Below, one piece after another: positions 1-34,688 of a stretch of 34,877 nt of DNA. The notes under the pieces were generated by a model. That model saw nothing but the letters and a program-made list of their open reading frames with translations, was not told where the DNA came from and did not search any database. The DNA is from a virus. Position 1 is the first letter of the stretch, and each line of letters begins with the position of its first letter. The position numbers and the translations under genes were made by a program. The DNA lies in the IMG/VR virus record IMGVR_UViG_3300029928_000026, one strand, 5' to 3'.

Positions 1-431
1 GCGTCGGCGCATCCGTCCGTATGCACCATGAGGGACAATCCGAGGTCCAGCATGACCTCGAACATCCCGTCCTCGCACGCGTTCACGCGTCCGATGTCCA
101 TCAGCTCCCTGAGCGTCCTTCTGTCCATCTTCTCCATATCGTCGGATTCCAGAACCGCTCCGAGGATGTCGGTGCCCTGCGCCTTGTCCTGACCGACCGC
201 ATTGTATCCCATCCTGTAGAGAGCCGATCTGATGAGGGTCAGCCATGCTCCCGCTGTGCTGATGTTATCCGCAATCCAGCGGAACGACTCGATGTCCGAA
301 GTCCCCGATTCCTGCATGAGGTAGGCGTCCTGCACCTTCTTCCTGTCTTCCGAAGGGGAATCGAGGTAGAAATTCACTGCCTCGTCCGCGTCTTCGAAGG
401 TCTTTCCCAATACGATGTATCTCATAGCCAT
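1..431 (-). CDS. Hypothetical protein, truncated by window edge (>143 aa; MAMRYIVLGKTFEDADEAVNFYLD...)
   Basis: Absent from ORF track (no stop in window). Manual translation is open from ATG 431 to base 1. AGGAG SD and a GAACA-type upstream module at 432-471. Confidence 0.8.
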   Translation of the reverse strand, partial: MAMRYIVLGKTFEDADEAVNFYLDSPSEDRKKVQDAYLMQESGTSDIESFRWIADNISTAGAWLTLIRSALYRMGYNAVGQDKAQGTDILGAVLESDDMEKMDRRTLRELMDIGRVNACEDGMFEVMLDLGLSLMVHTDGCAD

Positions 432-482
432 TTCTGTTCTCTCCTTGTTATGTTCTGTTGGTAAATGGTTTGGATTGATGTT

Positions 483-680
483 TCAGTATCCCGAAGGAAC
501 CTCTCCGTGCTTGTCCCATGCGACGGACCTGCCGTCGAGCAGATCCATAAGGACATCGACGTATCTCTCGCGCTCGCATCCCTCGGAGCAGTCCGCAGCC
601 ATGCGGAAATGGTCCGAGGCCTCCTTGAGGCTCGGCCACTCCACACGGTTGCCGTAGCATACCGTCGAAATCATCGGCAT
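483..680 (-). CDS. Small hypothetical protein (65 aa) with a C-S-E-G-C-E-R-E-R-Y motif
   Basis: C-terminal part of track ORF 483..1031. Start re-called at ATG 680 (AGGAG SD), overlapping the stop of the upstream gene. The SEGxERERY motif resembles a small family I recall from phages/ICEs. Confidence 0.75.
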   Translation of the reverse strand: MPMISTVCYGNRVEWPSLKEASDHFRMAADCSEGCERERYVDVLMDLLDGRSVAWDKHGEVPSGY

Positions 681-1024
681 CGTTCTCCTGCGCCGAAGGT
701 ATCGTTGCCTTGTGATTCGTTCTCGATGGTGAACAGCTCCACTCCGAGAAGCCCTTCTCCGACATTCTTCTCGGTCTCTCTCGCCTGATGCATCATGCTG
801 TGCAGGGTGTATATGACGAACCTGCGACGCGCGTCCTCGTCCTCCAGCGAGGTCCACATATATTTGAGGGGAAGTCCGAGGATCTCTCTCATTCTGGATA
901 TGCAAAAATTCGAGATGGCCCTCCTGTCCTCTGCGGAACAGAGGGAGTAAGCGTTCATCGCGGCGTCGATGTTGTTGTACATCCTGCTCATGACATAGAA
1001 TCTGATTCCGATGTTTGTTGACAT
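671..1024 (-). CDS. Hypothetical protein (117 aa)
   Basis: GGTG SD-like site and BRE/TATA promoter upstream; in register with neighbouring genes. Confidence 0.7.
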   Translation of the reverse strand: MSTNIGIRFYVMSRMYNNIDAAMNAYSLCSAEDRRAISNFCISRMREILGLPLKYMWTSLEDEDARRRFVIYTLHSMMHQARETEKNVGEGLLGVELFTIENESQGNDTFGAGERCR

Positions 1025-1055
1025 GTCTCACACCTTGTATTACGTTGTATAACTA

Positions 1056-1086
1056 ACGTATATTAAAAGGTTTAGTGAAAGGGTTT
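1056..1086 (-). promoter_or_regulatory. Archaeal-type promoter (AAACCTTTTAATATA) preceded by a second AAACCCTTT copy
   Basis: Minus strand reads aaaccctttcactaaaccttttaatatacg, about 30-45 nt upstream of ATG 1024. Confidence 0.6.
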
Positions 1087-1089
1087 GCA

Positions 1090-1108
1090 GAGGTCCCGAA
1101 GGGACCTC
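1090..1108 (-). terminator. Perfect 8-bp hairpin GAGGTCCC-N3-GGGACCTC overlapping the stop of the Gp88-like gene
   Basis: Inverted repeat seen directly; terminator function is inferred. Confidence 0.45.
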
Positions 1109-1754
1109 AGAGGATGGTCTGGAACTCCTTGGAGGAGTGGCCGTGGTATCTCAAGGCGATGCGCCTGAATGCCGGCTGGCTGGCGTACCAGTCGTCCTCG
1201 GTGCCGTCCACCCATCCTTCCGGAAGCCTGAAGTCCTTAGGGACCACGATGGCCTGACGGTCCGAGTCCTCGATGAGGCGGTCCTCCAATCCGCCGTAGC
1301 TCATGACCACGGTGAAGTTGTCGGGCAGCTCGGTGCTGTGCATCATGTCCACCATCTTGGTGTATGCGTAGAAGCGCACCTCGGGGAACAGCCTCATGAG
1401 GTCGATCCACCCGTCCAGGTACTCCTGGCAGAAGAAGTCCCCGCTGTCGTGGATCCTCACGTAGGCGGTCTTGTGCATCCTTCTGGCCTGCACCCTGTGG
1501 ACCATCAGCTCGCCTTGGAGCTGTTCCCATAGGGTATCGTCGTCGAACATGGCTCTGTTCTCCTGGTAGGCGTTCAGGACGACCGAGAACATCTGCCTGC
1601 CCTGCTGGGCATAGCAACCCTCCTTGCACTCGTTTGCGTTCGGGCAGGTGTAGAGTGCAGGCATGCTGAACGATGCCAGCTTCATGTCGGGGTGCTTCCC
1701 CATGGTTGCGTCCATCTTTGTGTTCCCCTTGCTCAATGCGTTGTCGTAGCTCAT
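1107..1754 (-). CDS. Gp88-like protein (radical-SAM-like Fe-S fold), 215 aa
   Basis: TCPNANECKEGCYA (CX5CX3C), VRIHDSGDF, RFYAYTK and NFTVVMS motifs match the phage GP88 family. Start re-called at ATG 1754 (GAAGGT SD). Confidence 0.8.
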   Translation of the reverse strand: MSYDNALSKGNTKMDATMGKHPDMKLASFSMPALYTCPNANECKEGCYAQQGRQMFSVVLNAYQENRAMFDDDTLWEQLQGELMVHRVQARRMHKTAYVRIHDSGDFFCQEYLDGWIDLMRLFPEVRFYAYTKMVDMMHSTELPDNFTVVMSYGGLEDRLIEDSDRQAIVVPKDFRLPEGWVDGTEDDWYASQPAFRRIALRYHGHSSKEFQTIL

Positions 1755-1843
1755 ATCTCTACCTTCTTTGTTGTTCGAAGAGGTTTGGAAGAGTTTGGTG
1801 GGGGATCGGTGTTCCCTCCTCGCACCCGATCCCGCGATTCCTG

Positions 1844-2254
1844 TCAGACCTGCACCTTTGCGATCTTCGTGTGGCCCTTCGTGTTCGCAAGGCGAAGGCC
1901 CAGCAGATTGGAGATGCGGCCGTTCCACGACTGTCTCGACAGCCACTTGTCGCCTCTCGCGGACACCGCGCGCACCGACCAGACGTTGGTGCCGTCGTGG
2001 TGGTACGACCGCACCTCCAGCGTGTTCTCGGAAGTCAGGAAGTATTCGACATCCGATATCCCTCCTCCCATCCATGCGACCTTCTCCAGATCGTCCGCGC
2101 TGCCCACCAGCACGGCGGTCATGCGGGGACCTTCCCACGTGCCGATGACCCCGTCCATGACGAGAGGGGTCTTCTCGCACAGGGCTTCGGCGTAGTACAT
2201 CGCCTGCTCGCGGGACAGTCTCTGAGTCTTCTCCTGCATATCTGTTCTGTACAT
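1844..2254 (-). CDS. Hypothetical protein (136 aa; contains SYHHDGTN)
   Basis: C-terminal part of track ORF 1844..2821. ATG 2254 lies 9 nt after AGGAG. Confidence 0.75.
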   Translation of the reverse strand: MYRTDMQEKTQRLSREQAMYYAEALCEKTPLVMDGVIGTWEGPRMTAVLVGSADDLEKVAWMGGGISDVEYFLTSENTLEVRSYHHDGTNVWSVRAVSARGDKWLSRQSWNGRISNLLGLRLANTKGHTKIAKVQV

Positions 2255-2316
2255 TCTGCATATCTCCTTGTTCTGTTCTTGAAATGGTTTCGTAAAGGGT
2301 TTGAAGTGGTGTCCGT

Positions 2317-2661
2317 TCAGACGATCCTCTTCTCGGCGGCGTAGGCGTCGCTGTACCACAGCGTCCTGACGACCAGCTCGTCGAACCGGTTTCTGGCTTC
2401 CGACTCCGTGAAGTCGTACTCTCCGTTCGACCACCATGCGCGAGGGGTGCTGTTGCCGTCGTCGTCGGGAATGATTCCGAGGTTCTTCCCGATGACGTAG
2501 TCGCCGGTGGCTTCGCGGCGACCCATACATATGAGTTCGAAACCGTTTGAGATGCCTATCGCGCATATCTCGACCGAGAAGTTCCAAAGGGATCCCCTCT
2601 CGGCGAGGATGTCGATCATCTTTCCGATCTGCTGCACGTCTGCTCCTGCTCCAGTCAACAT
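2317..2661 (-). CDS. Hypothetical protein (114 aa)
   Basis: Start re-called at ATG 2661, 9 nt after AGGAG; conserved upstream module. Confidence 0.75.
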   Translation of the reverse strand: MLTGAGADVQQIGKMIDILAERGSLWNFSVEICAIGISNGFELICMGRREATGDYVIGKNLGIIPDDDGNSTPRAWWSNGEYDFTESEARNRFDELVVRTLWYSDAYAAEKRIV

Positions 2662-2760
2662 TTTCCATGTCTCCTTGTTCTGTTCTTGAAACGGTTTGTT
2701 CTGTTCGGTTGTTCGGTGGGGAGTCGGTGTTCTCACCTCGCACTCGACCCCGTTCGATGC

Positions 2761-3117
2761 TCACTCCTTCCAGCCTTCCTCCGTCATCCAGTTCTTGATC
2801 CACTGAAGATAGTCGGGACACGGCTCGACGTCGTACAGGACCGCCAAGGTCAGCTTGACTGCATTCGTGAGACTGAATCTTCCATACATCATCGACTCAT
2901 TGTCGATGACATCTTTGAGAATCCCGTTCAGGCGGATGTCCGCCTTGTCCTTCGGAACCATCCACGAATGTCCGTCCAGATAGTCCGACAGGTACAGGTA
3001 CAGGTCCTTGTCCTCCCTGTGAACCCACATCTCCCTGTAGAATCCCGCAGGGCAGCCGATGTAGCCGCTTACCGCTTCCTTCAGTCCGTGGACTTTGAAC
3101 TTGCCTATGTATATCAT
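2761..3117 (-). CDS. Hypothetical protein (118 aa)
   Basis: AGGAGGTG SD; ATGA overlap with the upstream gene stop. Confidence 0.75.
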   Translation of the reverse strand: MIYIGKFKVHGLKEAVSGYIGCPAGFYREMWVHREDKDLYLYLSDYLDGHSWMVPKDKADIRLNGILKDVIDNESMMYGRFSLTNAVKLTLAVLYDVEPCPDYLQWIKNWMTEEGWKE

Positions 3118-3446
3118 TCCTCGCACCTCCTTTCTGCGCAGTCCATGTCGAACCCGCATATTCTGAATGCTATGATGGACGGCTCTCCGTCGAAGGTGAT
3201 GCTCTTCATCGTCCATTGGTACCCAGGGGTTCCGCGGAACCTCCCGCCTGTCCGATTGATACGGATTGCGATCACCCTCTTCGTTGTTCTGAGCCGTATG
3301 AAATCCACATACGGGTCCAGCCCTTCGGCGATGCACTGCGCCTTGTAGCCGTCGATGAACTTCTTGAGCCACCTGCGGGATTTATAGTACTTGCATATCA
3401 GACCCTTGCGAGGGTCAAAGCAATAGACATTGTACTCTTCGCTCAT
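3114..3446 (-). CDS. Hypothetical protein (110 aa)
   Basis: GAGGAGG SD; coupled to neighbours. Confidence 0.7.
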   Translation of the reverse strand: MSEEYNVYCFDPRKGLICKYYKSRRWLKKFIDGYKAQCIAEGLDPYVDFIRLRTTKRVIAIRINRTGGRFRGTPGYQWTMKSITFDGEPSIIAFRICGFDMDCAERRCEE

Positions 3447-3447
3447 C

Positions 3448-3810
3448 TCAATCCTCCTCCTCGAACGAGTATGCCTCGAACAAGTACGGACACTCGTCGT
3501 TCCATGCGACTCTGAAGATCCCGCTGTAATCGACGGCGATCAGTCCGACATCCAGTCCGTCCGCGCAGTGCGGATCCCCGATATCGACGGTCGTCAGCCC
3601 GATGTTCAGTCCGTCGGGGTTCTGCTCGCACAGAACCTGGCACAGGCGTGCCATGCCGTACTCCGCGTCATCCGCGGGGTCGCGGTACCCTCTGGACATC
3701 ATCTCCTTGATCGCGTCCCACAGTGCCTGTCTGTTGAACCAGTGGACGTAGATGCCCACGGTGACGGTGGTCCTGACTCCGGTCGATACGATGATTGCTC
3801 TGTTTCCCAT
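3448..3810 (-). CDS. Hypothetical protein of the MGNRA...IYxHW...YGxARLxQ phage/MGE family (120 aa)
   Basis: N-terminal MGNRAII, GIYVHW and GYRDP..YGMARLCQV pattern recalled from phage/ICE hypotheticals; GAGGT SD. Confidence 0.75.
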   Translation of the reverse strand: MGNRAIIVSTGVRTTVTVGIYVHWFNRQALWDAIKEMMSRGYRDPADDAEYGMARLCQVLCEQNPDGLNIGLTTVDIGDPHCADGLDVGLIAVDYSGIFRVAWNDECPYLFEAYSFEEED

Positions 3811-3916
3811 TTCAATAACCTCTTTTGTTCTGTTCTTTCAAGGCGTTTGTCAGATCGGTTCTTGGCTGTGGGGTCGCTGTTCTCTCATCGTCAGCCGACC
3901 CCGCGCGGTCGCGGAC

Positions 3917-4330
3917 TCACCACCACATTTCGGAGTCGTCCACGTCGATGTCGTAGCCGCCGTCTATCTTCAGGATGTCCATGAATGTTCCGATGGCGTC
4001 CTCGACCTCGTCCGCGACCGCTTCATCGATGTCGTCGTCGGACGTCGTTCTTGCATCGATGTGCAGGTCGATCCACGCGGTGAAGGTGCGCACGGTCTGA
4101 AGGTTCTCGACTCCGTTCCGTCCGAAGTCCTCGACCTCATCGGAATAGGTCACATCCCACGAATCGAAGATGTTGTCCGCTATCTCCGTGCTCTCCTTCC
4201 TGACGGCCTTCTCGAAGTCGTCGGTCTCCGTGTTGGTCCTGAACTCGACCTTCACGTTCACGCTCGTGACTCTCCAGCATTCGCCTGCATCGAGTCTCCA
4301 GGTTCCGTCTTCCCAGCTCTGCTGTGCCAT
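3917..4330 (-). CDS. Highly acidic hypothetical protein (137 aa)
   Basis: C-terminal part of track ORF 3917..5386. ATG 4330 follows GAGGT. 37 D/E versus 11 K/R by my count. Confidence 0.8.
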   Translation of the reverse strand: MAQQSWEDGTWRLDAGECWRVTSVNVKVEFRTNTETDDFEKAVRKESTEIADNIFDSWDVTYSDEVEDFGRNGVENLQTVRTFTAWIDLHIDARTTSDDDIDEAVADEVEDAIGTFMDILKIDGGYDIDVDDSEMWW

Positions 4331-4428
4331 ATCTCTTACCTCTTCTGTTCTGTTCTTGAAACGGTTTCGATAGAAGGTGTTGGCTGGCGGGTCGCTGTTC
4401 TCTCCTCGCACACGACCCAGTTCATGAT

Positions 4429-4758
4429 TCAGTAGTACGACGACTCGTACTCGGGCTTGCCCTTCCAAGGGTATGCGTTCGCAAAACTGCTGATGCTCAC
4501 CGCCTTGTAAGCGGTGTTCACTCTTCTGCGCATCGGCGCGGACCTGATGCGGGACTTGTCTGGAACCACATATCCCGACATGGGGCCTATCGATTCCGAG
4601 CGACGCGACCCTATCTCCTGGATGACGACCGTCTTCGCGGTTCTGTCCAGGACGATGTAGAAGTCCGTGTTCGTCTGCTCGTATCCCCACTGGGACACAA
4701 GGACGTCTCCGACGTCGAATCCGTCGTTCATGCTCACTGCCGCCTTCTTTGCTGCCAT
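4429..4758 (-). CDS. Hypothetical protein of the GDxLxSxWGYEQTNxDFY family (109 aa)
   Basis: WGYEQTN motif and C-terminal W-K-G-K-P...S-Y pattern recalled from phage/plasmid hypotheticals; GAGGT SD 7 nt before ATG 4758. Confidence 0.8.
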   Translation of the reverse strand: MAAKKAAVSMNDGFDVGDVLVSQWGYEQTNTDFYIVLDRTAKTVVIQEIGSRRSESIGPMSGYVVPDKSRIRSAPMRRRVNTAYKAVSISSFANAYPWKGKPEYESSYY

Positions 4759-4784
4759 TTTCATTACCTCTTCTGTTCTGTTGT

Positions 4785-4802
4785 GAGGGGAGTCCTCCCC
4801 TC
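4785..4802. terminator. Hairpin GAGGGGA-N4-TCCCCTC just after the stop of 4810..5538
   Basis: 7-bp perfect stem; same stem family as 22209-22226 and 34693-34710. Confidence 0.5.
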
Positions 4803-4809
4803 GGGGTGT

Positions 4810-5538
4810 TCACCAATCGAAGCTCCCTGAATCCCATGCGGTATCCTCGGGAACCGCCAGCCATATCGTGCGCTCGCCCTCGTCCTCGAACGGGCTGACG
4901 ATGCGCGCTCCTCCGACGTTCTCCGCCTGCTCGATGAACGTCTTGACTTCCTCTTCGCTCCTGTGTCTCGTGTGGGACAGGATGACTGGGGGATCGCTCA
5001 TCGCCACGACCTTCACCGTGTAAGTCTCCATCGGAACGGCTTCGAGCTGGGTGAAGGTGTCGCCTGTGTACCTGACGGTGTACCAGTTGAGCTTCTCGTC
5101 CAATCCTCTCGAAGAGTCGAGATGGTCTACCAGCTCGTGGAACGGGAAGATGGCCGCGCCGTCCTCCGTCTCGACGAATGTCAGGATGTCCTGCGAGTCT
5201 GCGCACTCTATCCCGAGGTACTTGGAGCCTGTGTAGCTCCATCCTGGAAGAATCAGCCCATCGACGAGATCGACATCCTGAATCAGGATGTCGTCGATGC
5301 GCTGGATGACCGCATCGGTCAGCACTTCGGGTCTCAGGACCTTGCTGGGCTCGACGACCCTGCCGTTGAGTTCGAAGTCGGACCATTCGTAGTCCGCGTA
5401 GTCGCGGACTTCCTGCCAGCCCATCCGCGCGACAAGGCGTGTCGCGTAGGCGCGGCGTATCTCGTCTGCATTGTTGCAGACTACGAGGGATTCGCCGGTC
5501 GAGTTGTTGCGGATCATGTACTTCATTGTTGCCTTCAT
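4810..5538 (-). CDS. Hypothetical protein (242 aa, acidic)
   Basis: AGGAG SD, conserved upstream module, typical codon usage. Confidence 0.8.
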   Translation of the reverse strand: MKATMKYMIRNNSTGESLVVCNNADEIRRAYATRLVARMGWQEVRDYADYEWSDFELNGRVVEPSKVLRPEVLTDAVIQRIDDILIQDVDLVDGLILPGWSYTGSKYLGIECADSQDILTFVETEDGAAIFPFHELVDHLDSSRGLDEKLNWYTVRYTGDTFTQLEAVPMETYTVKVVAMSDPPVILSHTRHRSEEEVKTFIEQAENVGGARIVSPFEDEGERTIWLAVPEDTAWDSGSFDW

Positions 5539-5642
5539 TTCTATTTCTCTCCTTGTTCTGTTCTTTTAAGGCGTTTGAATGGCGGTTATCGGCTGGGGGG
5601 TCGGTGTTCCCTCCTCGTCATCCGACCCCGTTCACTGCGTCG

Positions 5643-6131
5643 TCACTCGTTGCGAACGACCTTGTAGTTGCGGTAGCTGGTGGTGTACGCCTTCAGCTCC
5701 TTCATGAAGGACTCGGGCATCCGCTCATCAAGGCGTTCCAGTCCGCGCTTCGTCTTGAGCGTTCCGATGAGCGCCGATAGACGGGCTTTCTCGTTGCGTC
5801 CGATGAGCTCCTCCCCGATGTCGATGGCGAGCTTCCAGTACATCGGATGTTCGTCCAGGAAGCCCTTGAAATCGGTCTTCTCCGCATGAGCGATGACGAG
5901 TTTGAGATCATCCGCGTTCACGGTGGTGATCTCCTTCTTGCCGACCTCTTCGAGATAGGCGACGATGCCGTCTATTTCGGCGGTGGCTTCGTCCTCCTGC
6001 GCCTTGAAACGCTCGGCGTTCTCGTGGGCGATGCTCTTCTCTCTGATACGGGAGTTGAGCATCTCCATAAGCTCGGAGTCCGAGAGCTGGGAGTAGTCGA
6101 TTTCGGGGGTGCTGGTCTTTTTCGTTGCCAT
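5643..6131 (-). CDS. Hypothetical coiled-coil protein (162 aa)
   Basis: Start re-called at ATG 6131 (GAGGT SD); heptad-like charged N-terminal half. Confidence 0.8.
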   Translation of the reverse strand: MATKKTSTPEIDYSQLSDSELMEMLNSRIREKSIAHENAERFKAQEDEATAEIDGIVAYLEEVGKKEITTVNADDLKLVIAHAEKTDFKGFLDEHPMYWKLAIDIGEELIGRNEKARLSALIGTLKTKRGLERLDERMPESFMKELKAYTTSYRNYKVVRNE

Positions 6132-6242
6132 TTTTATTACCTCTCTGTTCTGTTCTTGAAACGGTTTCATCAAAGCGTTTGAACGGCGGTTGTCGGGTGG
6201 CGGATCGCTGTTCTCTCATCGCAGCCGACCCAGTTCCGAAGC

Positions 6243-6413
6243 TCAGCTTCTGTATCTCTGGTCTGCGGTTTCGAGATAGCACCCTTGAGATGCCATCTCG
6301 CGCCTTACATCGTCCTCGATGTCCTCGTGCGAACGCCTGTCGAATCCCGTCTGGCGGTTGTAGATGTCGTTCACGACGTCTTGTATTTCGCACCATGTAA
6401 CACAGCCTGCCAT
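6243..6413 (-). CDS. Small hypothetical protein (56 aa; MAGCVTWCEIQDVVNDIYNRQTG...)
   Basis: Below the track length cutoff. Manually translated; GAGGT SD 7 nt upstream; fills the gap between promoters and the next module. Confidence 0.7.
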   Translation of the reverse strand: MAGCVTWCEIQDVVNDIYNRQTGFDRRSHEDIEDDVRREMASQGCYLETADQRYRS

Positions 6414-6516
6414 TTTCTCTACCTCTTTGCAGATGTCCTTTCAGACAAACGCGGTTCGGGGCGCGGGGGGTCGCGGGTGGATCCGTGTTCGCGCTCGATG
6501 CCGTCTCGATTCCCTG

Positions 6517-6583
6517 AAGGGTTAAAAGGTTTCAACTTACACAAGTCATAATTGTATTGTTAAAGGGTTTAGATAAGAAGTTT
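6517..6583 (-). promoter_or_regulatory. Tandem leftward BRE/TATA-like promoters (AAACCCTTTAACAATA; AAACCTTTTAACC)
   Basis: AT-rich boxes at 6555-6570 and 6517-6532, upstream of the leftward array. Confidence 0.5.
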
Positions 6584-6785
6584 AGCCGATTGTGACGATA
6601 CAATCGGTAGCGGTTGGGTGATGAAATTCCAGTATGCGCGGTCTCGACTCTCCATAGTCGAGATAAACCGAGATAGCGTACTTGAGGATGCGGTGAACGT
6701 CGGACAAGTTCGATACTATGCAGTCGTCGAACTCGTGGTATCTGTTCGCGTTGTCGATGCTAAAAATCTGAATCGTGTACTTCAT
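6582..6785 (-). CDS. Hypothetical protein (67 aa, lower GC)
   Basis: GAGGT SD 7 nt upstream; upstream AAACTTTTTAACCC TATA-like box near 6847-6860. Confidence 0.7.
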   Translation of the reverse strand: MKYTIQIFSIDNANRYHEFDDCIVSNLSDVHRILKYAISVYLDYGESRPRILEFHHPTATDCIVTIG

Positions 6786-7111
6786 TTCAATTACCTCTTT
6801 TAGTGTGAGCTAAGAAGTTTGTTGAATGTTCATTTTTTTTAGAATGGGTTAAAAAGTTTGTTGGATGTGACACATCCGCAGGTTATAGGATATAACTATG
6901 TCTACTCGATATCGAGTAGACATAAAGCCTTGTCGGGTTGTCAATCCGACTCTTTTCGCACTTGCGACGTGTCCGAGGCTTTTAGACACGTGCGCGTTCC
7001 GCGTGTATATGCGCGTGGCGTGTACGTCACGCGTCTTTTACGACGCATGGCGCGCATACCGTGCATCACGCGTTTTTTAGACGCATGACGCACGCCACGC
7101 ATGACGCGGAT

Positions 7112-7196
7112 AAATCGCGTCGTCATTCGACGGCGCGATTTAGCCTAAGAAGGCTCGCGTTACTGAGTCAGTAATAGACGTATCTGACTTGACTCA
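7112..7196. repeat. Cluster of inverted repeats in the strand-switch region
   Basis: 13-bp stem at 7112-7141 (one G-T pair, 4-nt loop); AGCCT/AGGCT at 7142-7155; TGAGTCA/TGACTCA at 7164-7196. Confidence 0.7.
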
Positions 7197-7375
7197 ACGG
7201 GGCGGACATAGCTCTCATATGTATATAAATGTAATTATTTGGTTTACATTAGCCTATATAACATACAAAACGTAACATATGGATGTTATGCCATGCTATT
7301 GTATAGCACGCCTACGTGTCGCTATACGGGTCAGGGGGGATCTGGGTATGCGGGGTTGTAAAAATCCCTCGCGTC

Positions 7376-7467
7376 GAAAAATCAACCCTATATAGCTCGA
7401 AAAATCAGCCCTATACAGCTCGAACCACCGGTCCTATACAGCTTCGCGGTCCCGCCCGATATAGCTC
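7376..7467 (+). repeat. Four imperfect 23-bp tandem repeats with core CCCTATA(T/C)AGCTC
   Basis: Units start at 7376, 7399, 7422 and 7445; further CCCTATAT-like cores at 7472, 7493 and 7517. Confidence 0.8.
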
Positions 7468-7524
7468 CGCACCCTATATCGCGCAGCCGAATCCCATATA
7501 TAGGCGGAAGGACTGTCCCTATAT

Positions 7525-7794
7525 ATGGAAGACAATGGATCCGTCGCATCCGGGCCCGCGGCAGACGACCGCAGGGTCTACTGGTGTCCGACATGCAGGG
7601 CATGGTACCTGGTCAGAGGCGATTCGCGTCCGGTGTGTCCCACGTGCATGGCGCCGGCGAGCACCTATACATGCACGAGATGCGGGAAGACCTGGACGCC
7701 CCGCCGCGTCGATCCCCCGAAGCACTGCTCCAGATGCAACAGTCCGTACTGGAACCGCATGAGGACGGCCGCCCACTCCAAGAGGAGGGCCTGA
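7525..7794 (+). CDS. Double zinc-ribbon protein (89 aa)
   Basis: Four CxxC pairs. C-terminal CxRCGxxWxPR...PxxCxxCxSPYW motif recalled from archaeal and archaeal-virus Zn-ribbon proteins. TATA-like CATATATA about 25 nt upstream suggests a leaderless mRNA. Confidence 0.8.
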   Translation: MEDNGSVASGPAADDRRVYWCPTCRAWYLVRGDSRPVCPTCMAPASTYTCTRCGKTWTPRRVDPPKHCSRCNSPYWNRMRTAAHSKRRA

Positions 7795-8867: not shown

Positions 8868-11800
8868 ATGCGAGAGCATATGGCCGACGATGACGAGCTC
8901 GGAGATGAGCAGACTAAAGTCAAGGTTCCCGGACCGGATATACCGCACCTCAACAATTCTAATGATCATAAGACAGGCGACGGTGTCGAGAACGTCGCTC
9001 CTGCGAATCAGACCGGCGAGACCGGCAAACAAACCGATTCTGCAGAGCAGGCCGTCGCTCCTGTGGATCAGACCGGCGAGACCGTCGAAGAAGAGCAGGA
9101 GGACGGCGCTGGGGCCGATGCGGAGGTGAATCCTGTCGAGACGGAGGTCCAGGCGAAGGCCCATGTCGAGGAGCCCCCTGAAGTCGAGGGGCCCCCTGCT
9201 GAGTACACATCGACCGAAGAAGCGAAGGACAGATCCGAAGAGGAGGAGCAGGACTCCGAGGAGAGGCGGCAGGACGAGGAGACCTACGGATCGCAGGACG
9301 ACTCGCGGTTCGACGAGGATGCCGGGAGATACTACGACGAGGCGAGGCGCCGCAACAGGTGGATGACGACGGAGAACGCCCTGAAGACCGCCGCGGTCAT
9401 GCTCCCCGGAGTCGCCGCGCAGGGTCTCGGAGAAGGCATCGGAGCGGTCACCAGACTGGTGGACGGCTTCCTCTCGGGAGGGGCGCTGAGCATGCCGTCC
9501 AGGGTGCTGGCGGAGGCCATGACCGGCGCGGATACCGCGAAGCGTCTCGGAGAGGCGTCCGCGCAGGCGTACGGCATCGCGGCGAACGCCGACAGGGAGG
9601 CTCTGAAGGGCACGTATCAGGGGCGCATGCTCGAAGCCCGCGACAAGGCGGAGATGATGGGCATCGCAAGGGCGCATGCGGTCATCGCGCAGGCGGGCGG
9701 GGAGGACCTCTCGCAGCTGGACGACGCAGGGCTCGACGGCGTGGAGAGGAGGCTCGGCGCGAGGCGTGCGGAGCTGATGCGCAGGCTGAGCGAGGACCAC
9801 GCGGCCAGAGAACGCAACAGACAGCAGTACAGGGACGGCGACGCCGTGATGCAGTTCGCAGGGCTCGTGGGCGGAGCGGACGGAACCATGAAGGCGTCGG
9901 AGCGCAGGGAGGCTCTCGCGGAGATCGCATCAATCGACGACGTGACCAAGGGCATCGGGACCGCCAGACGCAGCCTGAGGTCTCAGGAGAGGGAGCAGGC
10001 GCGTCAGCAGAAGGCCGCGCAGGCGCAGGCGTACGAGGACTACTATCAGAACAGCGCCCAGCCGTCCCAGCGCCTCGTCATGGACATGCTCGGACGCAAG
10101 GACATCGAGTGGGGGGCGGACGGGCTGCCCGTGGACCGCAACGTGCTCGGCAGGGCCGCCCGCGCCCTGCTGAACAGATACAGGAGCGAGACGAACCCCG
10201 ATCCCGCTCTTGCGCGCGCGGCCGCGATATACGGAGCGGCGTACAGGTCCAGAGGCGAGTCGTCCGAAGCGGAGCGCAGGAGGCTCCTGAGAGAGCAGAA
10301 GGAGGCGGACAAGGCTGCGAAGCAGAAGGCGTATGACGATTATTACGGCAATAAGGCGACGCCCGAGCAGAGATACGTCATGCGGCACATCCTCGGACGC
10401 AACGATGTGGATTGGGGAGACAACGGATTCCCTGTGGATAGGAACGTCATATACCGCATCGCACGCGGACTGGACGACTACGCGACGGCGAATCCCAACA
10501 ACGCGGATGCCGGGTATGCGAAGCAGATGGCCGGGAAGTATTGGACCGAATGGTACAATCATGCTCCCGATGAGACCAAGGCGCGCCGTGCCGAGGCCGA
10601 GCAGAGGAGGCAGGCGCGTCAGCAGAAGGAGGCGGACAAGGCTGCGAAGCAGAAGGCGTACGAGGACTACTACGCCAACCGGGCGGACGACGGCCAGAAG
10701 ACGGTCATGGATCTGCTCGGACGCAGAGACATCGACTGGGACGAGCGCGGGTTCCCTGTGAAGGACTCGGACCTGAACAGGGCGTACAGGAGGCTGAACC
10801 ACGACATACTGAACGAGCCCGACCCGCAGGCGAGAGCATCCCTGGAGAAGCTGAGGGACGCCTACTGGGCCGAGAAGCAGGCCCGTGCGATCACTCCCGA
10901 GAAGAGGGCGAAGCTGGAGGAGGAGAGGAAGCGGAGCGAGGCGTACAGGCAGTTCTATCAGAGTCTCGCGGACGACGATCCGAGGAAGGTGCTGATGGAC
11001 GCCTTGGGCGATATCGAGATCGACTGGGGCGCGGACGGCCTCCCCATGGACAGCAGTAAGCTGCGGAAAGCCGCGCTGGCCCTGACGGAGAGGGCGAACA
11101 GGACGAGCGACCCAGTCGAGGCGAACAGGCTGAACGGCTACGCGAAGAGGTTCACGGAGCAGTTCGCGCATCTCAAGGAGACTCCGGACGACAGGCTGAG
11201 GAGGGAGCAGACCGAGCAGGCCGAGCGCGACTACGCGAACGCGTACGGCGCAGCGGACGACTACCAGAAAGCATGGTTCGACAGGGTCAACGCCGGCAGG
11301 AGGACGAAGGCCGCGCCGCAGTTCGACGCCGAGGGCCTTCCCGCGGATCCCAGGATGCTGAACAGGTATGCGGTGTTCGCCAAGGAGCAGGCGGATGCGG
11401 CGACGGATGATGCCGTCAGAAGGGAGTGGAACGCCCGCGAGGAGAAGGCGAAGGCGAGGATAGGCACCGAGAAGATCCGGAGCAGATTGAATCCTGAAAA
11501 CAGGAGGCTGTTCGACACGGATGCCACGCAGAGGATGTACATGAGCATTCCGGGCGTGGGGGACGACAGGCTTGAGAACACCGAGCCGGGAGCCCTCCCT
11601 CTCGACAGCAGGAACTGGGGCAAATGGATCGGTCACCTCAGGAACAGGGGCGATATCGAGGGCGCGACGCTGGCGGAGCTCAACCGCGCGTGCAGGAACG
11701 CAGACCTTGCGGGCAAGTGGCCCGAGGTCAGCAGGAACGTGCGCAACCTCATGAGCAGGCTGGATGATGACGAGAAGGGCTTCATGGCCTCCCCTACGTT

Positions 11801-14945: not shown

Positions 14946-15725
14946 ATGCGCGATGGCAGGAGCATGACGCGGAAGAACGTTCTGACACCCGCTCCCATCG
15001 AGGAGGTCCTGCCCGAGGACAGGATCGAGACCACCTACGTCCGTATCGACGACCTCAAGCCGTACGAGAACAATCCTCGTTTCAATGACGATACCGTTCC
15101 TCTTCTCATAAATTCCATCGAAAGCTTCGGATTCAAGGTCCCGCCCGTCGTGATGCGCGACGGAACGCTCATCACAGGGCATACGAGGATCAAGGCCGCC
15201 AAGGAAGCAGGACGCAAGGCCATCGCGTGCATCATCGCAGAGGATTTCGACGATGCCAAGTCCAAGATGTTCCGCCTCGCTGACAACAAGACGCAGGAGG
15301 TGTCCTCATGGGATTTCGACAAGCTCCCGTTCGAGCTGGACGGCGTGAAGGACATGGGGTATGAGCCGGAGGACTTCGGATTCACCCCTCTGGACCTGGG
15401 GGCATTCGATGACGAGGACGCGGACGAGGACGGAGACGAGGGCATGGTGGCGCCCCCGACGAACATGGACATGCTGGAAGAGTCGGAGTTCATCAGCACG
15501 TCCGTGCGTCCCGGAGATGTGATCGCCATGGGCAAGGCGGAGGTCGTATGCGCTCCTGTCGAGCTGGACGATGTGATGGAGCTGCAGAAGAGGAAGACAT
15601 CCCGTCTGCACGAGCCCGATCCCGAGAAGTGCGAGGCTCTCGCCCGCGGGTGGATGGAGGAGACCGGAAGGCGCCCCGTACTCATGAGAGAGGGTTCTCC
15701 CGTGAACGGCTTCTTGGAAGATTGA
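14946..15725 (+). CDS. ParB/Srx-like N-terminal domain protein with a vestigial DNA-methylase-associated C-terminus
   Basis: IDDLKPYENNPR, SIESFGF..P, GHTRIKAA and RLADNK motifs are typical of phage ParB-like proteins. Start may be ATG 14964. Confidence 0.85.
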   Translation: MRDGRSMTRKNVLTPAPIEEVLPEDRIETTYVRIDDLKPYENNPRFNDDTVPLLINSIESFGFKVPPVVMRDGTLITGHTRIKAAKEAGRKAIACIIAEDFDDAKSKMFRLADNKTQEVSSWDFDKLPFELDGVKDMGYEPEDFGFTPLDLGAFDDEDADEDGDEGMVAPPTNMDMLEESEFISTSVRPGDVIAMGKAEVVCAPVELDDVMELQKRKTSRLHEPDPEKCEALARGWMEETGRRPVLMREGSPVNGFLED

Positions 15726-19719: not shown

Positions 19720-20634
19720 ATGACAGAAGAACAATCGGTCGCACCGGTTTTCAACAAGAAGGATGCGGCCTCGTTGTATAAGAAGGTCAACGAGCTGAGG
19801 GCCGACCTCATGACCCGCGACTGGACGGACGACAAGTTCCTTCAGATCGGGTCCGGCGGCTACAGATTCCTTTCGACCGACAAGATGCTGAAGACCGTAT
19901 CCCCGCTGATAGCGATGCACGGTCTGGAGCTGCGTGTGGAGATCAAGGAGCTCCAGCAGAGGGATGCTCTCGACAGGATGCCTCAGCATTGGACTCTGAG
20001 GGCCGATGTATCCCTGATAGATGTGGATACAGGCATGGCGGACACATCCGTGGTTTACGCGGAAGCGGCAGACAACGGAGACAAGGCTCTGCGCAAGGCG
20101 CACACCATGGCGATCAAGCAGTGGATTCTGTCCAAATTCCTGATTGCCGACGGAATCGACGAGCTCTACGAGACGCCTGAGAAGAGGTTCAAGCCGAAGA
20201 CCGAGGAGGAGCAGCAGGAAGCCAAGAGCCGCGTCCTGTCCATGGGAGAGAAGCCGTCCAAACCCGAACCCGAAGAGCCCAAGAAGACTGTCAAGAAGAA
20301 GCCTTCCGAGCCCAAGGAGGAGTCCAAGGCTGAAGGAGAGGCTCCTGCACCTGTCGAGGCTTCCAAGCCCGCAGAGAAGCCTGCAGAGGCTCCTGCGACG
20401 AAGTCGCCTGAGAACGGTTCCGGTGTATACGTTCATGGAATCGAGGTCAACAAGTTCGTTGCGGAGCTCTCCAAGCCTCAGTTCAACATGATCGAGAAGG
20501 CTGTCGAGGGCAAGATGCAGCTCCGTGACGCGGGAGCGTTCGGAGAGGACGAATACAGCATGATGCTGAAGCATCTCGGTGCCATCGAGACCAAGAACGA
20601 TGCGATGTCCTTCATCCGCATGTACAGGGAGTGA
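19720..20634 (+). CDS. ERF-family ssDNA annealing protein (304 aa)
   Basis: YRFLSTDKMLKTVSPL...HGL and AADNGDKALRKAHTMAIKQWILSKFLI match the ERF pattern; P/E/K-rich linker follows. Confidence 0.75.
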   Translation: MTEEQSVAPVFNKKDAASLYKKVNELRADLMTRDWTDDKFLQIGSGGYRFLSTDKMLKTVSPLIAMHGLELRVEIKELQQRDALDRMPQHWTLRADVSLIDVDTGMADTSVVYAEAADNGDKALRKAHTMAIKQWILSKFLIADGIDELYETPEKRFKPKTEEEQQEAKSRVLSMGEKPSKPEPEEPKKTVKKKPSEPKEESKAEGEAPAPVEASKPAEKPAEAPATKSPENGSGVYVHGIEVNKFVAELSKPQFNMIEKAVEGKMQLRDAGAFGEDEYSMMLKHLGAIETKNDAMSFIRMYRE

Positions 20635-21698
20635 GCAGGATGGATCAATATCTTCCTCCGAAGGCGGGATTCACAGTGGATGGCGATGTCATCCGTACCG
20701 ATGGTTCCGTCAAGAGGAAGGTAACAGGCACCACGATGGGCGGGATACTGGACTGCTCTCCGTGGTCCTCCCCGTTCCAGGTGGCATGCCAGCTGCTCGG
20801 ACTCGCCGACAAGGACCTGTCGTCGAAGCCTGCCATCATCGCAGGCCAGAAGTGCGAAGAACCCATCATCGCCTATGCAGGAAGGGCATATGCCGACAAG
20901 GGCCTCTTCGTGCCTGCAAGAGAGATCTATGGAATCAAAGAGGGAGGTCATGAGAACTGGCCTTCCGACTTCGATGACGAGATATTCGCAGGGCATGTGG
21001 ACGGCATCGTGGTGGATCCCGACGGAAACGACCACATCCTCGAAGTGAAGACGTCCAGCAACATGGACATGTGGGCGGAGGGAGTGCCGGAGCATTACTT
21101 CTGGCAGGTCGCGCTGTACAACGAATTCGTTGCGAAGTCCGATACGGCGTATGTCCTGCTCGGAGTGATGGACCCCGAGTCTCTGAAGGACCCGGACGCA
21201 TGGGTTCCGAGCGAGAGCAACACTGCCCTGTTCACTCTGAACATCGACAGGGATGCGGTCCGCGAGAAGCTGGACGAGGTGCGTGCGTGGTATCACGAGT
21301 ATATCGACGCATTCGCCACGCCGCCCTGCAATTCGCTCAACAAAAGAGACATGGAGCTGTTCATGAGGCTCTCGGGCATTGCGGACGACTCGGAATCCAT
21401 GGAGAGTCTGCTGGATGAGTATTCTGCGGTGAAAGGCAGAATCGATGCTCATGAGGCGGAGATAGAGGACGATTACGAGACCGCTGATGCGCTGAAGACG
21501 CGCATCAAGGATTGGATGGTCGCCCATAACGAGGATGTCCTGATGTCCAGGAACAAGGGATTCCAGGCCAAGATGGTCGTCAAGGAGTCCAAGGTGCTGG
21601 ATACGCGCCAGATGGAGCTCCATGGAATCGATCTGGCTCCATACTGGACGGTCAAGACCACCAAATCATTCACGGTGAAACCGGTAAAACGCGATTGA
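20631..21698 (+). CDS. YqaJ / lambda-exonuclease-like viral recombination nuclease
   Basis: GTTMGGILDCSPWSSPFQV, GHVDG, LEVKT and PEHYFWQV motifs; C-terminal coiled coil. Start GTG 20631 or ATG 20640. Confidence 0.88.
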   Translation: MSRMDQYLPPKAGFTVDGDVIRTDGSVKRKVTGTTMGGILDCSPWSSPFQVACQLLGLADKDLSSKPAIIAGQKCEEPIIAYAGRAYADKGLFVPAREIYGIKEGGHENWPSDFDDEIFAGHVDGIVVDPDGNDHILEVKTSSNMDMWAEGVPEHYFWQVALYNEFVAKSDTAYVLLGVMDPESLKDPDAWVPSESNTALFTLNIDRDAVREKLDEVRAWYHEYIDAFATPPCNSLNKRDMELFMRLSGIADDSESMESLLDEYSAVKGRIDAHEAEIEDDYETADALKTRIKDWMVAHNEDVLMSRNKGFQAKMVVKESKVLDTRQMELHGIDLAPYWTVKTTKSFTVKPVKRD

Positions 21699-21733
21699 AA
21701 CGATTTCGAGAATATAACAAAGAGGTATCAGAA

Positions 21734-22204
21734 ATGGCATACGAAGTAGAAGAGTGGGAATTCAGTCATGTGAACGATGCAGAGCTCGTCAGGGATCAGG
21801 TTCCTGACGGATGGAGGGATGTGAAGATCGTCACAGCCTCCTATGACGATACGGGCAAGTACTCCATCCGTGTCGAGGACCTAGATGGATCCCACGCGAG
21901 CGAGTTCACCAACTACTATCTGCTCAAGTCCGGCGAGGACGGATCAATCCAGAAGAACGCCATGTCCATCGGGTCTCTCAAGACCCTCGGAAAGGCGCTC
22001 TTCGAGATGGAGGATGGATTCCCTCCTGCACACTGCATCATCGGCGGAGTCGTCAGGGCGGAGATCAAGCACAAGGTCAGCAACAAGACGGGCAGGCAGT
22101 ACATGAACATCTACAAGTTCGCTCCTGCACCCGAGGCCATGGTGCTTTCGTACAGCGACATCGACCAGTACTACATCCCTGATGGGGAGGAGACATCCGA
22201 GTGA
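21734..22204 (+). CDS. Putative ssDNA-binding OB-fold protein (DUF669-like), 156 aa
   Basis: Position after annealase and exonuclease; VPDGW..VKI and ..VRAEIKH...YMNIYKF pattern; acidic tail; GAGGT SD before ATG 21734. Confidence 0.6.
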   Translation: MAYEVEEWEFSHVNDAELVRDQVPDGWRDVKIVTASYDDTGKYSIRVEDLDGSHASEFTNYYLLKSGEDGSIQKNAMSIGSLKTLGKALFEMEDGFPPAHCIIGGVVRAEIKHKVSNKTGRQYMNIYKFAPAPEAMVLSYSDIDQYYIPDGEETSE

Positions 22205-34600: not shown

Positions 34601-34688
34601 GATGGGCGCGGATTACAACTATACGGGACTCAACGTCGTCAAGGCGGACTTCAAGAAGGCTCAGACAGGAACCTTGCTGATTCTTTGA
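31680..34688 (+). CDS. Tail fibre / receptor-binding protein (1002 aa)
   Basis: BppU-like N-terminus, coiled coil, three VD..L...S.NPVQN..V repeats, a CBM5/12-like WxxGxxYxxGDIVxYxG module and C-terminal tandem small beta domains. Confidence 0.75.
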   Translation: MSQSAHMDLYYEFSKDNRTLSTKRGRTYAGQRCDARSATLHFDLYHYAMDEGDMPSYTEEWDFDAEGYSAYIMFRVYDENGYPYYYGDSSSPKFDGYTFQVPYEITTRARSARVEFQLVFTKVPFNGTLQDIDATEYLLSAVSGFAVKDEGFRPPMPPHGPRACAPPSPVACEPSVGGWIEMWKDASVLLPVDLRGRLNRPGLEMTFTTYRGQSQMLDLNVATLDANDQIPVSVIPTGADEGKIPVLKENLGDGDILSYSAKAKGIVGRTAVSKAQELEFNRDEVPLASAIPTKLRLRNSDGQSYVLQLCDMDMNVVSELDMPIEDVVKEAYYSDGYIHLIINTPGAEDGPTKDISFSVTDLLPLYVPGDDYIEISKDRVDSEGKTTYTVKLTKKFWDTVTAKDDAIKTILRKDLAAEASTRGAEDTKLSNRIDALAESAEGSDASIREDLRKESDQRAASDAYLKGLIKNNANDIQGLSGRTDILDEEVRLLPYRFKAGNAIDLKQTIDEKSQKITQVIISAQVDAELNHSSSNPVQNSAVTSELDAKQGKLKSSSTVRVEKDVDGLYYLTAATQVKVDSSVTADSTNPVQSKGVYEALEKKQDKLSVDGEFLDWDGTRLALSLDRLVDESLSPTSERPVQNKVVEKAISDLKTLKAAIPVWAESGVEYNSGDIVLYQGALYLCIADAPLTNHEPPTNKECWSPLIHSGAAAVQAVNRPTYICQFGNDKDTEYTIRHGLQCRELVWSIYTADSEHLYVNAIVSAPTINSLRIRLTEPPGTNGMVISIMRVREAATNVAVTGPINVDVTTPAVKWVFDSNDSGMPMYVQAVSDDNGTITDIVGDVIQNSSTAFNPVTIGFQEPRSGTLILAPATACFDMDGITMVLDKADASNKLKDGTWYLVQCFKDGEGESILDVRQDEHTVTIVTGGESWQGLVCLFEATATKEFSDVSELSYQHNKGRYVGVQSYGADGLMGADYNYTGLNVVKADFKKAQTGTLLIL

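Follow-up and report, generated by a model that had tools for sequence, protein, structure and literature searches.

The minus-strand arm of ORFans in a tailed virus of Methanomassiliicoccales carries repeated composite cassettes, each running from the stop codon of one small gene to the ATG of the next, and sequence comparison supports the view that these modules mark exchange points between related viruses. The arm is probably an archaeal counterpart of the promoter-early stem-loop (PeSL) cassette regions of T4-type phages.

The virus and its ORFan arm

The window (that is, the whole stretch of DNA that was analysed) comprises 34,877 nt of IMG/VR record IMGVR_UViG_3300029928_000026 and is part of a ~82-kb tailed virus. 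Its nearest record, and kin, is BK063680 vir335 (Caudoviricetes; stated host Methanomassiliicoccales). The array under study occupies the minus strand of window 1-6870, with transcription to the left, away from a non-coding region at which the arms diverge; it reaches past the window, up to a C5 methylase. This is probably the early arm, position being the sole basis of the word 'early', which an earlier note on this DNA had applied outright.

The cargo proteins are mutually unrelated apart from a weak match of M to O, and none but L (GP88) has a family in Pfam or NCBIfam, much as the earlier note had described them. Its further proposal of a host-takeover or anti-defence array finds no supporting family matches among the cargo. 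The annealase and exonuclease to which it pointed are encoded in the window, as an Erf-like protein and a YqaJ/RecE-type exonuclease (Table 1); they are candidate recombination machinery that may have a role in the exchange described below.

Architecture of the module

Six gaps (B/C, C/D, E/F, F/G, I/J and K/L) share a homologous ~100-nt module, whose six copies give an alignment of about 105 nt at a mean column identity of 69%. The order of the full module is stop codon, 9-14 nt (the range in the six-module alignment), 10-bp stem-loop, C/A-rich spacer, AAAC-NN-YTT box (single or doubled), the A/C-rich stretch AAGAACAGAACA, SD and ATG. Stem-loop and box are about 22 nt apart, and the alignment includes a conserved spacer that has no obvious signal function. 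The earlier claim of at least six gaps with this arrangement is thus borne out, and every module motif is well above chance in shuffle counts. The longest exact repeat in positions 1-7000 is 25 nt (15 nt or less in shuffles). With two or fewer mismatches allowed, AAGAACAGAACA has 16 matches (1.7 expected from shuffles), all but one of which (15/16) are minus-strand matches no higher than position 6157. AAACNNTTT has 19 matches (0.9 expected), which fall at 15 array loci and at two plus-strand intergenic sites, 21698 and 25523.

The promoter/leader part is also found without the module hairpin, in four further gaps (J/K, N/O, D/E and L/M) and not three, as had been counted before; D/E and L/M have other short GC hairpins instead.

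Table 1. Coordinates of the array, its cargo genes and other sites in the window
Feature	Position (strand)	Contents
Array head, lower GC	6414..6870 (-)	AAAC boxes before A 6851-6859
Gene A	6582-6785 (-)	
Gap A/B		AAAC boxes 6562-6570, 6524-6532 (-); module relic
Gene B	6243-6413 (-)	
Module W1, gap B/C	6132..6242 (-)	hairpin 6195-6233; AAAC boxes 6172-6180, 6159-6167; AAGAACAGAACA 6146-6157 (-); SD; ATG of C
Gene C	5643-6131 (-)	
Module W2, gap C/D	5539..5642 (-)	hairpin 5591-5630; AAACGCCTT box; AAGAACAGAACA 5554-5565 (-); SD; ATG of D
Gene D	4810-5538 (-)	
Gap D/E, short	4759..4809 (-)	different 7-bp GC hairpin about 4785-4802; ACAGAACAGAAGAGG leader/SD; no AAAC box
Gene E	4429-4758 (-)	
Module W4, gap E/F	4331..4428 (-)	hairpin 4382-4420; AAACCGTTT 4359-4367; AAGAACAGAACA 4346-4357; SD
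Gene F	3917-4330 (-)	
Module W5, gap F/G	3811..3916 (-)	hairpin 3864-3903; AAACGCCTT box; AAGAACAGAACA 3826-3837; SD
Gene G	3448-3810 (-)	
Gene H	3114-3446 (-)	
Gene I	2761-3117 (-)	
Module W6, gap I/J	2662..2760 (-)	hairpin 2714-2752; AAACCGTTT 2689-2697; AAGAACAGAACA 2676-2687; SD
Gene J	2317-2661 (-)	
Gap J/K	2255..2316 (-)	AAAC boxes 2294-2302, 2282-2290; AAGAACAGAACA 2269-2280; SD; no hairpin
Gene K	1844-2254 (-)	
Module W8, gap K/L	1755..1843 (-)	hairpin 1796-1834; putative promoter/leader diverged
Gene L	1107-1754 (-)	Pfam GP88
Gap L/M	1025..1106 (-)	different 8-bp hairpin over stop codon of L; AAAC boxes 1078-1086, 1065-1073 with TTTTAATATA
Gene M	671-1024 (-)	
Gene N	483-680 (-)	
Gap N/O	432..482 (-)	AAACCATTT 463-471; CAGAACA leader; SD; no hairpin
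Gene O	3-431 (-)	leaves window
Erf-like protein	19720-20634 (+)	38% identity to vir335 Erf-like protein; Pfam ERF below cut-off
YqaJ/RecE-like exonuclease	20631-21698 (+)	
Plus-strand site	21698..21736 (+)	AAACGATTTCGAGA; A-rich stretch; AGAGGTA; ATG at 21734

The AAAC box and leader

Across four virus sequences AAAC..YTT is 3-6 times commoner than permuted motifs, and of the 53 copies followed by an ORF start, 27 stand 29-41 nt ahead of its ATG, with a mode of 36. Within the modules the boxes keep a fixed distance from the ATG on its 5' side, about 36 nt and, for a second box, about 48 nt; other lineages have the box in the canonical form AAACCTTTAAATA. Archaeal BRE and TATA elements are centred about 33 and 27 nt before the transcription start (PMC5316973), a geometry that a position about 36 nt before start codons fits. 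The AAAC-NN-YTT box can accordingly be thought of as a putative archaeal BRE/TATA promoter; tested as a sigma-70 promoter, it does not qualify. The plus-strand site at 21698 repeats the promoter/RBS design of the array, which suggests that this virus uses the AAAC-type box as an expression signal in general.

In the explanation that we favour, each box would be a promoter for host RNA polymerase, and the unit downstream of it would get its own transcript. The start of transcription from the proximal box is predicted to lie no more than a few nt from the ATG. Since this would place it 3' of the conserved SD, a dual mode has to be assumed, in which the SD would serve read-through transcripts and those that start from the distal box.

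The hairpin

The same fold is found in all six hairpin copies: 96% of the cells of the stem are paired (36-51% when the partner is slid), five of the ten pairs have changed on both sides, and the loop, CGAGGAGRGAA, is conserved. Folding energy is modestly better than that of shuffles (z from -0.4 to -2.7), and the sense strand folds as well as the antisense strand, so that action as RNA and action as DNA are both possible. T-runs were looked for 3' of the hairpins and none was found; lacking a T-tract, the hairpin is not a canonical archaeal terminator. It may mark, insulate or stabilise the message of the preceding gene at its 3' end.

In the window the covariance model picks out six copies and no more, each of them on the minus strand with a score of 53-61 bits, and none in the other 28 kb. 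Scanned over relatives, as the earlier note had advised for a profile of the module, it finds one copy in the whole 83-kb vir335 (the W8 hairpin is the positional match of this single copy, 5' of the GP88 gene), two in the recombinants L041 and L050, and none in the lineages of L043/L049 and of L047. The family of this hairpin has expanded and is lineage-specific. A further sequence, at about 6478-6505, had been taken for a degenerate hairpin; what is left there is a remnant of loop and 3' arm. It folds no better than shuffles (z = -0.16) and is missed by the covariance model.

Expansion in one lineage (six copies against one and none) of a palindromic element with a conserved core might also be the mark of a selfish MITE/REP-like repeat, a hairpin-bearing unit of ~60-100 nt that spreads in intergenic sites and whose link with promoters is secondary. 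This we hold to be very unlikely: orientation and register are constant (9-14 nt past the stop, with fixed spacing to box and ATG), terminal inverted repeats and target duplications are not obvious on reading the gaps and the module alignment, and no copy lies outside the ORFan arm or on the opposite strand. Among 185,579 prokaryote genomes, none has the core 20-mer as a repeat, a result that bears on the earlier note's concern that the module might be a generic host repeat.

Gene order and variation between relatives

The order of genes is B,C,D,E,F,G,H,I,J,K,L,M,N,O here, J,L,K,G,I,B,D',O in vir335 and E,G,J,B,K,N,L,I in L043; the three lineages have the same small genes in three orders, and the rearranged units are module-bounded. 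G and I, which have no module between them, remain linked, and C and F, each with full modules on both sides, are missing from vir335. The comparison of relatives that had been proposed as a check has a divided outcome, in that lineages differ in order, with joints in modules, but 20 strains of the species (98-100% identical) are invariant in content and order from B to O. The array head is an indel hot spot, where other strains have allele X1 or X2 and L019 has lost gene A. Gene-precise deletion occurs also at a compact boundary repeat, GGAGGAnGATTGAGATG, that is distinct from the module.

Recombinant genomes and junctions

Direct comparative evidence of exchange comes from recombinant genomes of three samples, in which window-type F and D lie in a vir335-type backbone. 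In L041 the backbone has 94-98% identity to the vir335 type, and the insert joins window 4395..3825 (W4 3' arm, F and W5; 97%) to 5630..4834 (W2 and D; 98%). F and D are linked, in L041 and L050, by a chimeric W5/W2 module, whose 5' parent in L041 is W5; the shared part is 77 nt, and the switch lies within CGACCCC, seven shared nt in the 3' arm of the stem. Comparison of these sequences shows that W5/W2 recombination took F and D into another virus lineage together with their own putative expression signals. At the left joint the sequence is gcgaYccgcc, that of the W4 3' arm; this joint is common to L005, L041 and L050, which come from three samples, and the cluster of the fused ORF comprises 17 sequences.

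Not every event is of this kind. Several indels and junctions have 2-10-nt microhomology, not module homology: microhomology joints are found at the X1 deletion, at the loss of A in L019, at a second, different left junction in L042 (directly 5' of W4 and outside the hairpin) and at the left joint of L041 (9/10 nt, with coding DNA). The right joint of L041 falls in D/D' coding homology, and the hairpin-less lineages L043 and L047 are shuffled equally. These observations, together with the stability of the array within the species, are what one would expect if modules were expression signals only, kept alike by selection, if shuffling proceeded by illegitimate (microhomology) recombination and by homologous recombination in coding sequence, and if joints landed in gaps because only such products are viable. 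We consider this somewhat unlikely. A chimera that switches inside seven shared nt, two independent joints in the same 3' stem arm, conservation that spans a spacer devoid of obvious signal function, and six copies against one in the sister lineage all argue against it. The proposal, already made in the earlier note, that modules serve gene exchange is upheld in that the W5/W2 chimera, the W4-arm joint and the module-bounded reordering mark modules as exchange points; several joints are of the microhomology type and not homologous crossovers between modules.

The concentration of two joints at the same stem arm bears on the hairpin itself. Covariation in the stem, combined with conservation of the loop, is typical of structures that are recognised in single-stranded nucleic acid, and a hairpin closes each cassette, as would an attC-like site of a dedicated virus or host recombinase or nuclease in an integron-like cassette array. 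Such a site is highly improbable here, given that one of the two joints is microhomology with coding DNA and that the L042 joint lies off the hairpin. No integrase, tyrosine recombinase or serine recombinase was found in the scanned window ORFs (a set without the giant ORF 8868-14330 and the ORF 31680-34688), in the annotation of vir335 or in the neighbourhood of the array, and an integron attC cassette array was rejected on the lack of an integrase among the scanned ORFs and on the L042 joint. A broader version, in which the hairpin would be an active recombination site, cut or recognised in single-stranded or cruciform form during replication or by a virus nuclease, with exchange aimed at its 3' arm, is decidedly doubtful; if true, hairpin-targeted exchange would give an archaeal virus a gene-cassette system that resembles an integron but has no integrase.

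Relation to known systems

PeSLs of T4-type phages are ~100-nt intergenic cassettes extending from an upstream stop codon to a downstream SD/ATG, and combine a host-type early promoter, shown to be active, with a terminator/attenuator stem-loop. They lie beside ORFans in hyperplastic regions, where indels and replacements map to cassettes, chimeras arise when cassettes recombine with each other, and excised mini-circles with one cassette plus cargo occur (Arbiol et al. 2010, PMC2839356; Comeau et al. 2014, PMC4122927). The array resembles these, as the earlier note had suggested, in that a composite promoter-like/stem-loop/RBS module heads small ORFans in one divergent arm of a tailed archaeal virus. 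Here too the composite extends from stop to SD/ATG (six full and four partial copies), the hairpin copies are confined to the ORFan arm, changes between relatives map to modules (some events being microhomology joints) and a chimeric module exists. In contrast to the sigma-70 promoter of the T4-type element, the promoter-like box appears BRE/TATA-like; the stem-loop is placed about 22 nt 5' of the box instead of within or overlapping the promoter, and has a conserved purine-rich loop but no G-run/C-run or T-tail. There is no sequence relation.

The haloarchaeal myovirus HGTV-1 has, according to a review, a PeSL-like motif in which a TATA-box and an inverted repeat stand ahead of most ORFs in one arm, with shuffling only suggested (Sencilo et al. 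2013, in PMC3950731). Such modules had thus been described in an archaeal virus before, of which the earlier note was not aware. In the HGTV-1 genome (NC_021328, 128-143 kb) 22 gaps have such a motif. Both are archaeal tailed viruses with an arm of small same-strand ORFs and a ~100-nt motif with TATA-like box and inverted repeat. The sequences, however, are unrelated (the hairpin covariance model finds nothing in the searched 64 kb of HGTV-1), and the order differs, being TATA-like box, hairpin, TATA-like box, GAAAGACTTAATA, ATG. The HGTV-1 gaps inspected have no evident SD, suggesting a leaderless design, whereas the modules here carry one. The hosts belong to different phyla, and it is for the present virus that recombinant genomes have been found.

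Short conserved repeats at gene starts or boundaries, many per genome, are also represented by the SAS/ESAS of cluster K mycobacteriophages and the 'boundary sequences' of lambdoid phages, some of them near inverted repeats and with proposed roles in expression and as recombination linkers. These are bacterial, much shorter, and lack a defined composite of promoter and 3' hairpin; the compact boundary repeat GGAGGAnGATTGAGATG is their closer analogue here than the module is.

Significance

The PeSL principle is known already (from T4-type phages, and as suggested in HGTV-1), and no new kind of mechanism is involved here. What is new is unusually direct evidence of recombination, and a third distant host group for the principle. 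Viruses of gut methanogens are known nearly only from metagenomes. For those of Methanomassiliicoccales the array supplies a candidate promoter/leader consensus, as well as a structured element that may act at the 3' ends of RNAs or take part in recombination, and the natural recombinants indicate that cassettes with putative promoters move between virus lineages at the modules.

Layout of the arm and its relatives

The array of small minus-strand genes is the leftward arm of the genome: a non-coding, repeat-rich region (6.8-7.5 kb) is where it diverges from the plus-strand genes, which run rightwards from ~7.3 kb. These specify a giant ORF product, a ParB-like protein, a VapE-type helicase, a SNF2 helicase, an Erf-like protein and a YqaJ/RecE-like exonuclease, and further large plus-strand ORFs, one with a Big_2 domain, also lie on this side. 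The divergent region, with its three repeat features, is a candidate for an origin or partition site; the virus itself encodes a ParB-like protein. The giant ORF has a GC content of 64-67% (about 56% elsewhere), contains short tandem repeats and varies from 1706 to 2058 aa across otherwise near-identical strains. Scanning the window against Rfam and for tRNAs gave no matches.

A single GenBank record covers 25% of the left 7 kb, at 76% identity: BK063680 / NC_134205, Caudoviricetes sp. vir335 (83 kb, circular, source baboon faeces, stated host Methanomassiliicoccales). Its similarity to the window as a whole is patchy, with identity ranging from 64 to 99%. Many gut metagenomes hold near-identical contigs (up to 82 kb), and in one such contig, L027, the array matches that of the window at 100% identity.

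Coordinates of features in the window and in related metagenomic contigs (L numbers)
Feature	Location	Strand	Remarks
Gene G/gene H junction	window, about 3440-3465		made by the CAGGAGGAnGATTGAGATGCA motif
Patch in gene G	window 3690-3787		~100 nt; 73% identity in L046
Gene F	window 3917-4330	-	137 aa
Module W4 3' arm (3' strand of stem), F, module W5	L041 11012-11580 = window 4395..3825		97% identity
Module W2, gene D	L041 11504-12299 = window 5630..4834		98% identity
A-B interval	window 6414-6581 equivalent, L011-L030		low-GC head of arm
Divergent non-coding region	window 6786-7530		three repeat features
Perfect palindrome	window 6897-6924		28 nt
ACGCG-rich repeats	window, about 6960-7140		
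Iterons CCTATAYAGCT	window 7374-7483		23-nt period, 4-5 copies
Giant ORF	window 8868-14330	+	1820 aa
Tandem repeats in giant ORF (example)	window 13618-13681		15-nt units x4.3
ParB-like protein	window 14946-15725	+	
Gene preceded by AAAC box	window 21734	+	
C5 DNA methylase	L012/L022 15299-17800		outside window
Loss of K'	L050 4620-4700, vs L041 9170-9650		22-24-nt direct repeats
Gaps of the fourth lineage	L047 2837-3457		

Fifteen minus-strand genes (A to O) are called in the array, which extends past the start of the window (O, four packed small genes, a C5 DNA methylase and a 342-aa gene). Description of the cargo as mutually unrelated and mostly unknown, in the earlier note, is accurate: the genes are not paralogous to one another, a weak match between M and O excepted; L is the sole one with a Pfam family (GP88), E and N match PHROGs of unknown function, and the rest have no match in Pfam, PHROGs or NCBIfam. 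The same note's suggestion of anti-defence or host take-over functions is unsupported, since these three collections and the ESM Atlas add nothing to GP88 and the two PHROGs. The GP88 protein as query retrieved no IMG/VR relatives. Genes G-H-I and M-N are packed, with no gaps. Gene F, a cassette found moved between lineages, specifies a strongly acidic protein (pI about 4.05; 37 D+E residues), of which homologues outside these viruses were not found. The C5 DNA methylase at the array end is 468 aa long in most strains and 833 aa in some; the longer form has an intein-splicing domain match, and the size difference is a presence/absence polymorphism of an intein.

The repeated module

Full modules occupy six gaps (B/C, C/D, E/F, F/G, I/J and K/L); their alignment spans about 105 nt, at 69% column identity. 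Each module reads, in order, stop codon, 9-14 nt, stem-loop, C/A-rich spacer (CCAGCCRAnAACC), one or two AAAC-NN-YTT boxes, AAGAACAGAACA, SD and ATG. The repeated module that the earlier note described is thus real, its motifs being far more numerous than in shuffled sequence (16 copies of AAGAACAGAACA vs 1.7, and 19 of AAACNNTTT vs 0.9); exact repeats in the array extend to 25 nt (≤15 nt in shuffles). Gaps J/K and N/O have the promoter/leader part alone, and gaps D/E and L/M have different short GC hairpins. A small ORF inside the module was considered and ruled out (the loop contains ATG in two copies only). In a fourth lineage (L047) the gaps follow the same plan, that is, stop, GC hairpin, AAACNNYTT once or twice, A-rich stretch, GGAG and ATG; the conserved hairpin core, CAACGGTTCTCCCGA, differs from that of the window.

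The module might instead have been a generic repeat of host genomes. Its 20-nt core (AAACNNTTTCAAGAACAGAACA) is repeated in none of 185,579 prokaryote species genomes, and the module is therefore not such a repeat; the seven single matches, in unrelated bacteria, are chance hits. An IMG/VR search with exact module patterns returned no matches.

Exchange between lineages

Protein matches yield three different orders of the shared genes.

Order of shared array genes in three lineages
Lineage	Order
Window	B,(C),D,(E),(F),G,(H),I,J,K,L,(M),(N),O
vir335	J,L,K,G,I,B,D',O
L043/L044 (85 kb)	E,G,J,B,K,N,L,I

G..I, the only scorable adjacency of the window without a module, is retained in vir335; of the six adjacencies separated by modules, just one is (B..D). 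Genes C and F, each flanked by two full modules, are missing from vir335.

Recombinant genomes locate some of the joints. L041, a 41-kb contig at 90x coverage (sample ERZ26858319), is of the vir335 type (94-98% identity) apart from an insert that matches two separate stretches of the window. The 77 nt common to both matches constitute one module, W5-like up to CAGCGACCCC and W2-like from CCAGCCGATAACC on, which places the crossover within CGACCCC, in the 3' arm of the stem. At the left joint, codon 23 of resident gene D', the vir335-type counterpart of D (gcgatccgcc), is fused to the W4 3' arm (gcgacccgcc); the right joint lies within D/D' coding homology. (That the junction is an assembly artefact is unlikely, because the same left joint recurs in L050, from ERZ808254, and at the end of contig L005, from ERZ808277, and because the fused ORF that it creates forms a cluster of 17 member sequences.) In L042 (ERZ26859194) W4 is joined 13 nt upstream of its stem, immediately behind the final codon of E, which gives this module a second junction, independent of the first.

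Within the vir335 type, L050 has precisely lost K', the counterpart of K, between direct repeats that are copies of a compact SD/stop/start boundary motif, CAGGAGGAnGATTGAGATGCA. Together with the joints at modules, this deletion implies that recombination makes use of several kinds of gene-boundary repeat, of which the long hairpin module is the most conspicuous.

Between lineages, then, gene content and order differ, with some breakpoints at the modules. Within the species the order B..O is constant in twenty strains that are 98-100% identical, and variation is limited to a few sites. In the low-GC stretch that heads the arm, strains have X1 (a gene of 112 aa), its divergent allele X2 (134 aa) or no extra gene between A and B. 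Where one allele replaces the other, the limits of the exchanged stretch are a shared box, leader and ATG (left) and the following AAAC box (right); the deletion uses ATAC(C)AA microhomology. (X1 and X2 are very divergent, low-GC genes of some strains; the window has neither, and retains the last 20 nt of X1.) One strain (L019) is without gene A, with a 2-3-nt joint adjoining two boxes, and a 47-aa gene is present in 0, 1 or 2 copies. In L046, whose array is otherwise 99-100% identical to that of the window, the divergent patch in gene G looks like a gene-conversion tract, with no module at its bounds.

A predicted promoter

AAAC..YTT is 3-6x commoner than permuted motifs (in the window, vir335, L043 and L047). 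Of the copies upstream of an ORF start, half are 29-41 nt from the ATG (mode 36), and in doublets the distal AAAC copy lies at about 43-50 nt. The same design precedes a plus-strand gene far to the right, and takes the form AAACCTTTAAATA in lineage L043. In archaeal promoters the A-rich BRE and the 8-bp TATA box have their centres about 33 and 27 nt ahead of the transcription start (PMC5316973), and on the strength of this geometry and of its own placement and enrichment the AAAC box is a predicted BRE/TATA element. The proximal box would direct initiation within a few nt of the ATG, generating leaderless or nearly leaderless transcripts, and the distal box a leader of about 15 nt containing the SD, which read-through transcripts would also use. 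A similar AAAGATTCG located 37 nt upstream of the tRNA-Met gene (5' end) of vir335 lends the promoter reading weak support. No study of transcription start sites in Methanomassiliicoccales turned up in a literature search.

The hairpin

All six copies have an identical fold. In an alignment that includes two vir335-type copies, 96% of cells are paired (36-51% in slid controls) and 5 of 10 pairs are changed on both sides, for a small sample and a structure derived from the very sequences tested. The loop, CGA(G/T)GAG(A/G)GAA, is nearly invariant. Searches with a covariance model recover six hairpins in the window (every one in the arm and in the sense orientation), one in the whole vir335 genome (upstream of the GP88 gene, as is W8 in gap K/L) and two in recombinants L041 and L050, but none in two other lineages or in the 64 kb searched of the haloarchaeal myovirus HGTV-1.

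No T-run follows the stem, and a bacterial promoter/terminator scan flagged no hairpin. Folding energies show a modest gain over shuffles, and do not assign a strand since sense and antisense fold equally well. The conserved loop and covarying stem argue for recognition as a folded single strand, which may be RNA (in 3'-end protection, processing or attenuation) or DNA.

Relation to known cassettes

The promoter/stem-loop cassettes (PeSLs) of T4-type phages are ~100-bp units that reach from the stop codon of one gene to the SD/ATG of the next, with a sigma-70 promoter and a stem-loop; they are enriched beside ORFans, and shuffling and the formation of mini-circles take place through them (PMC2839356; PMC4122927). 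The likeness to PeSLs drawn in the earlier note stands as regards architecture and association with gene exchange; promoter activity, a role for the hairpin and involvement of the Erf-like protein and exonuclease in the mechanism are its putative components.

The accompanying belief that nothing of the kind had been described in archaeal viruses was incorrect: in HGTV-1 a TATA-like box and an inverted repeat motif precede most ORFs of one arm, and have already been compared to PeSLs (review PMC3950731). Inspection of its genome (NC_021328) locates 22 gaps of ~110-180 nt with this motif, which has no sequence relation to the module analyzed here. What is new is the host group (gut methanogens), the specific module and the direct evidence of module-module recombination.
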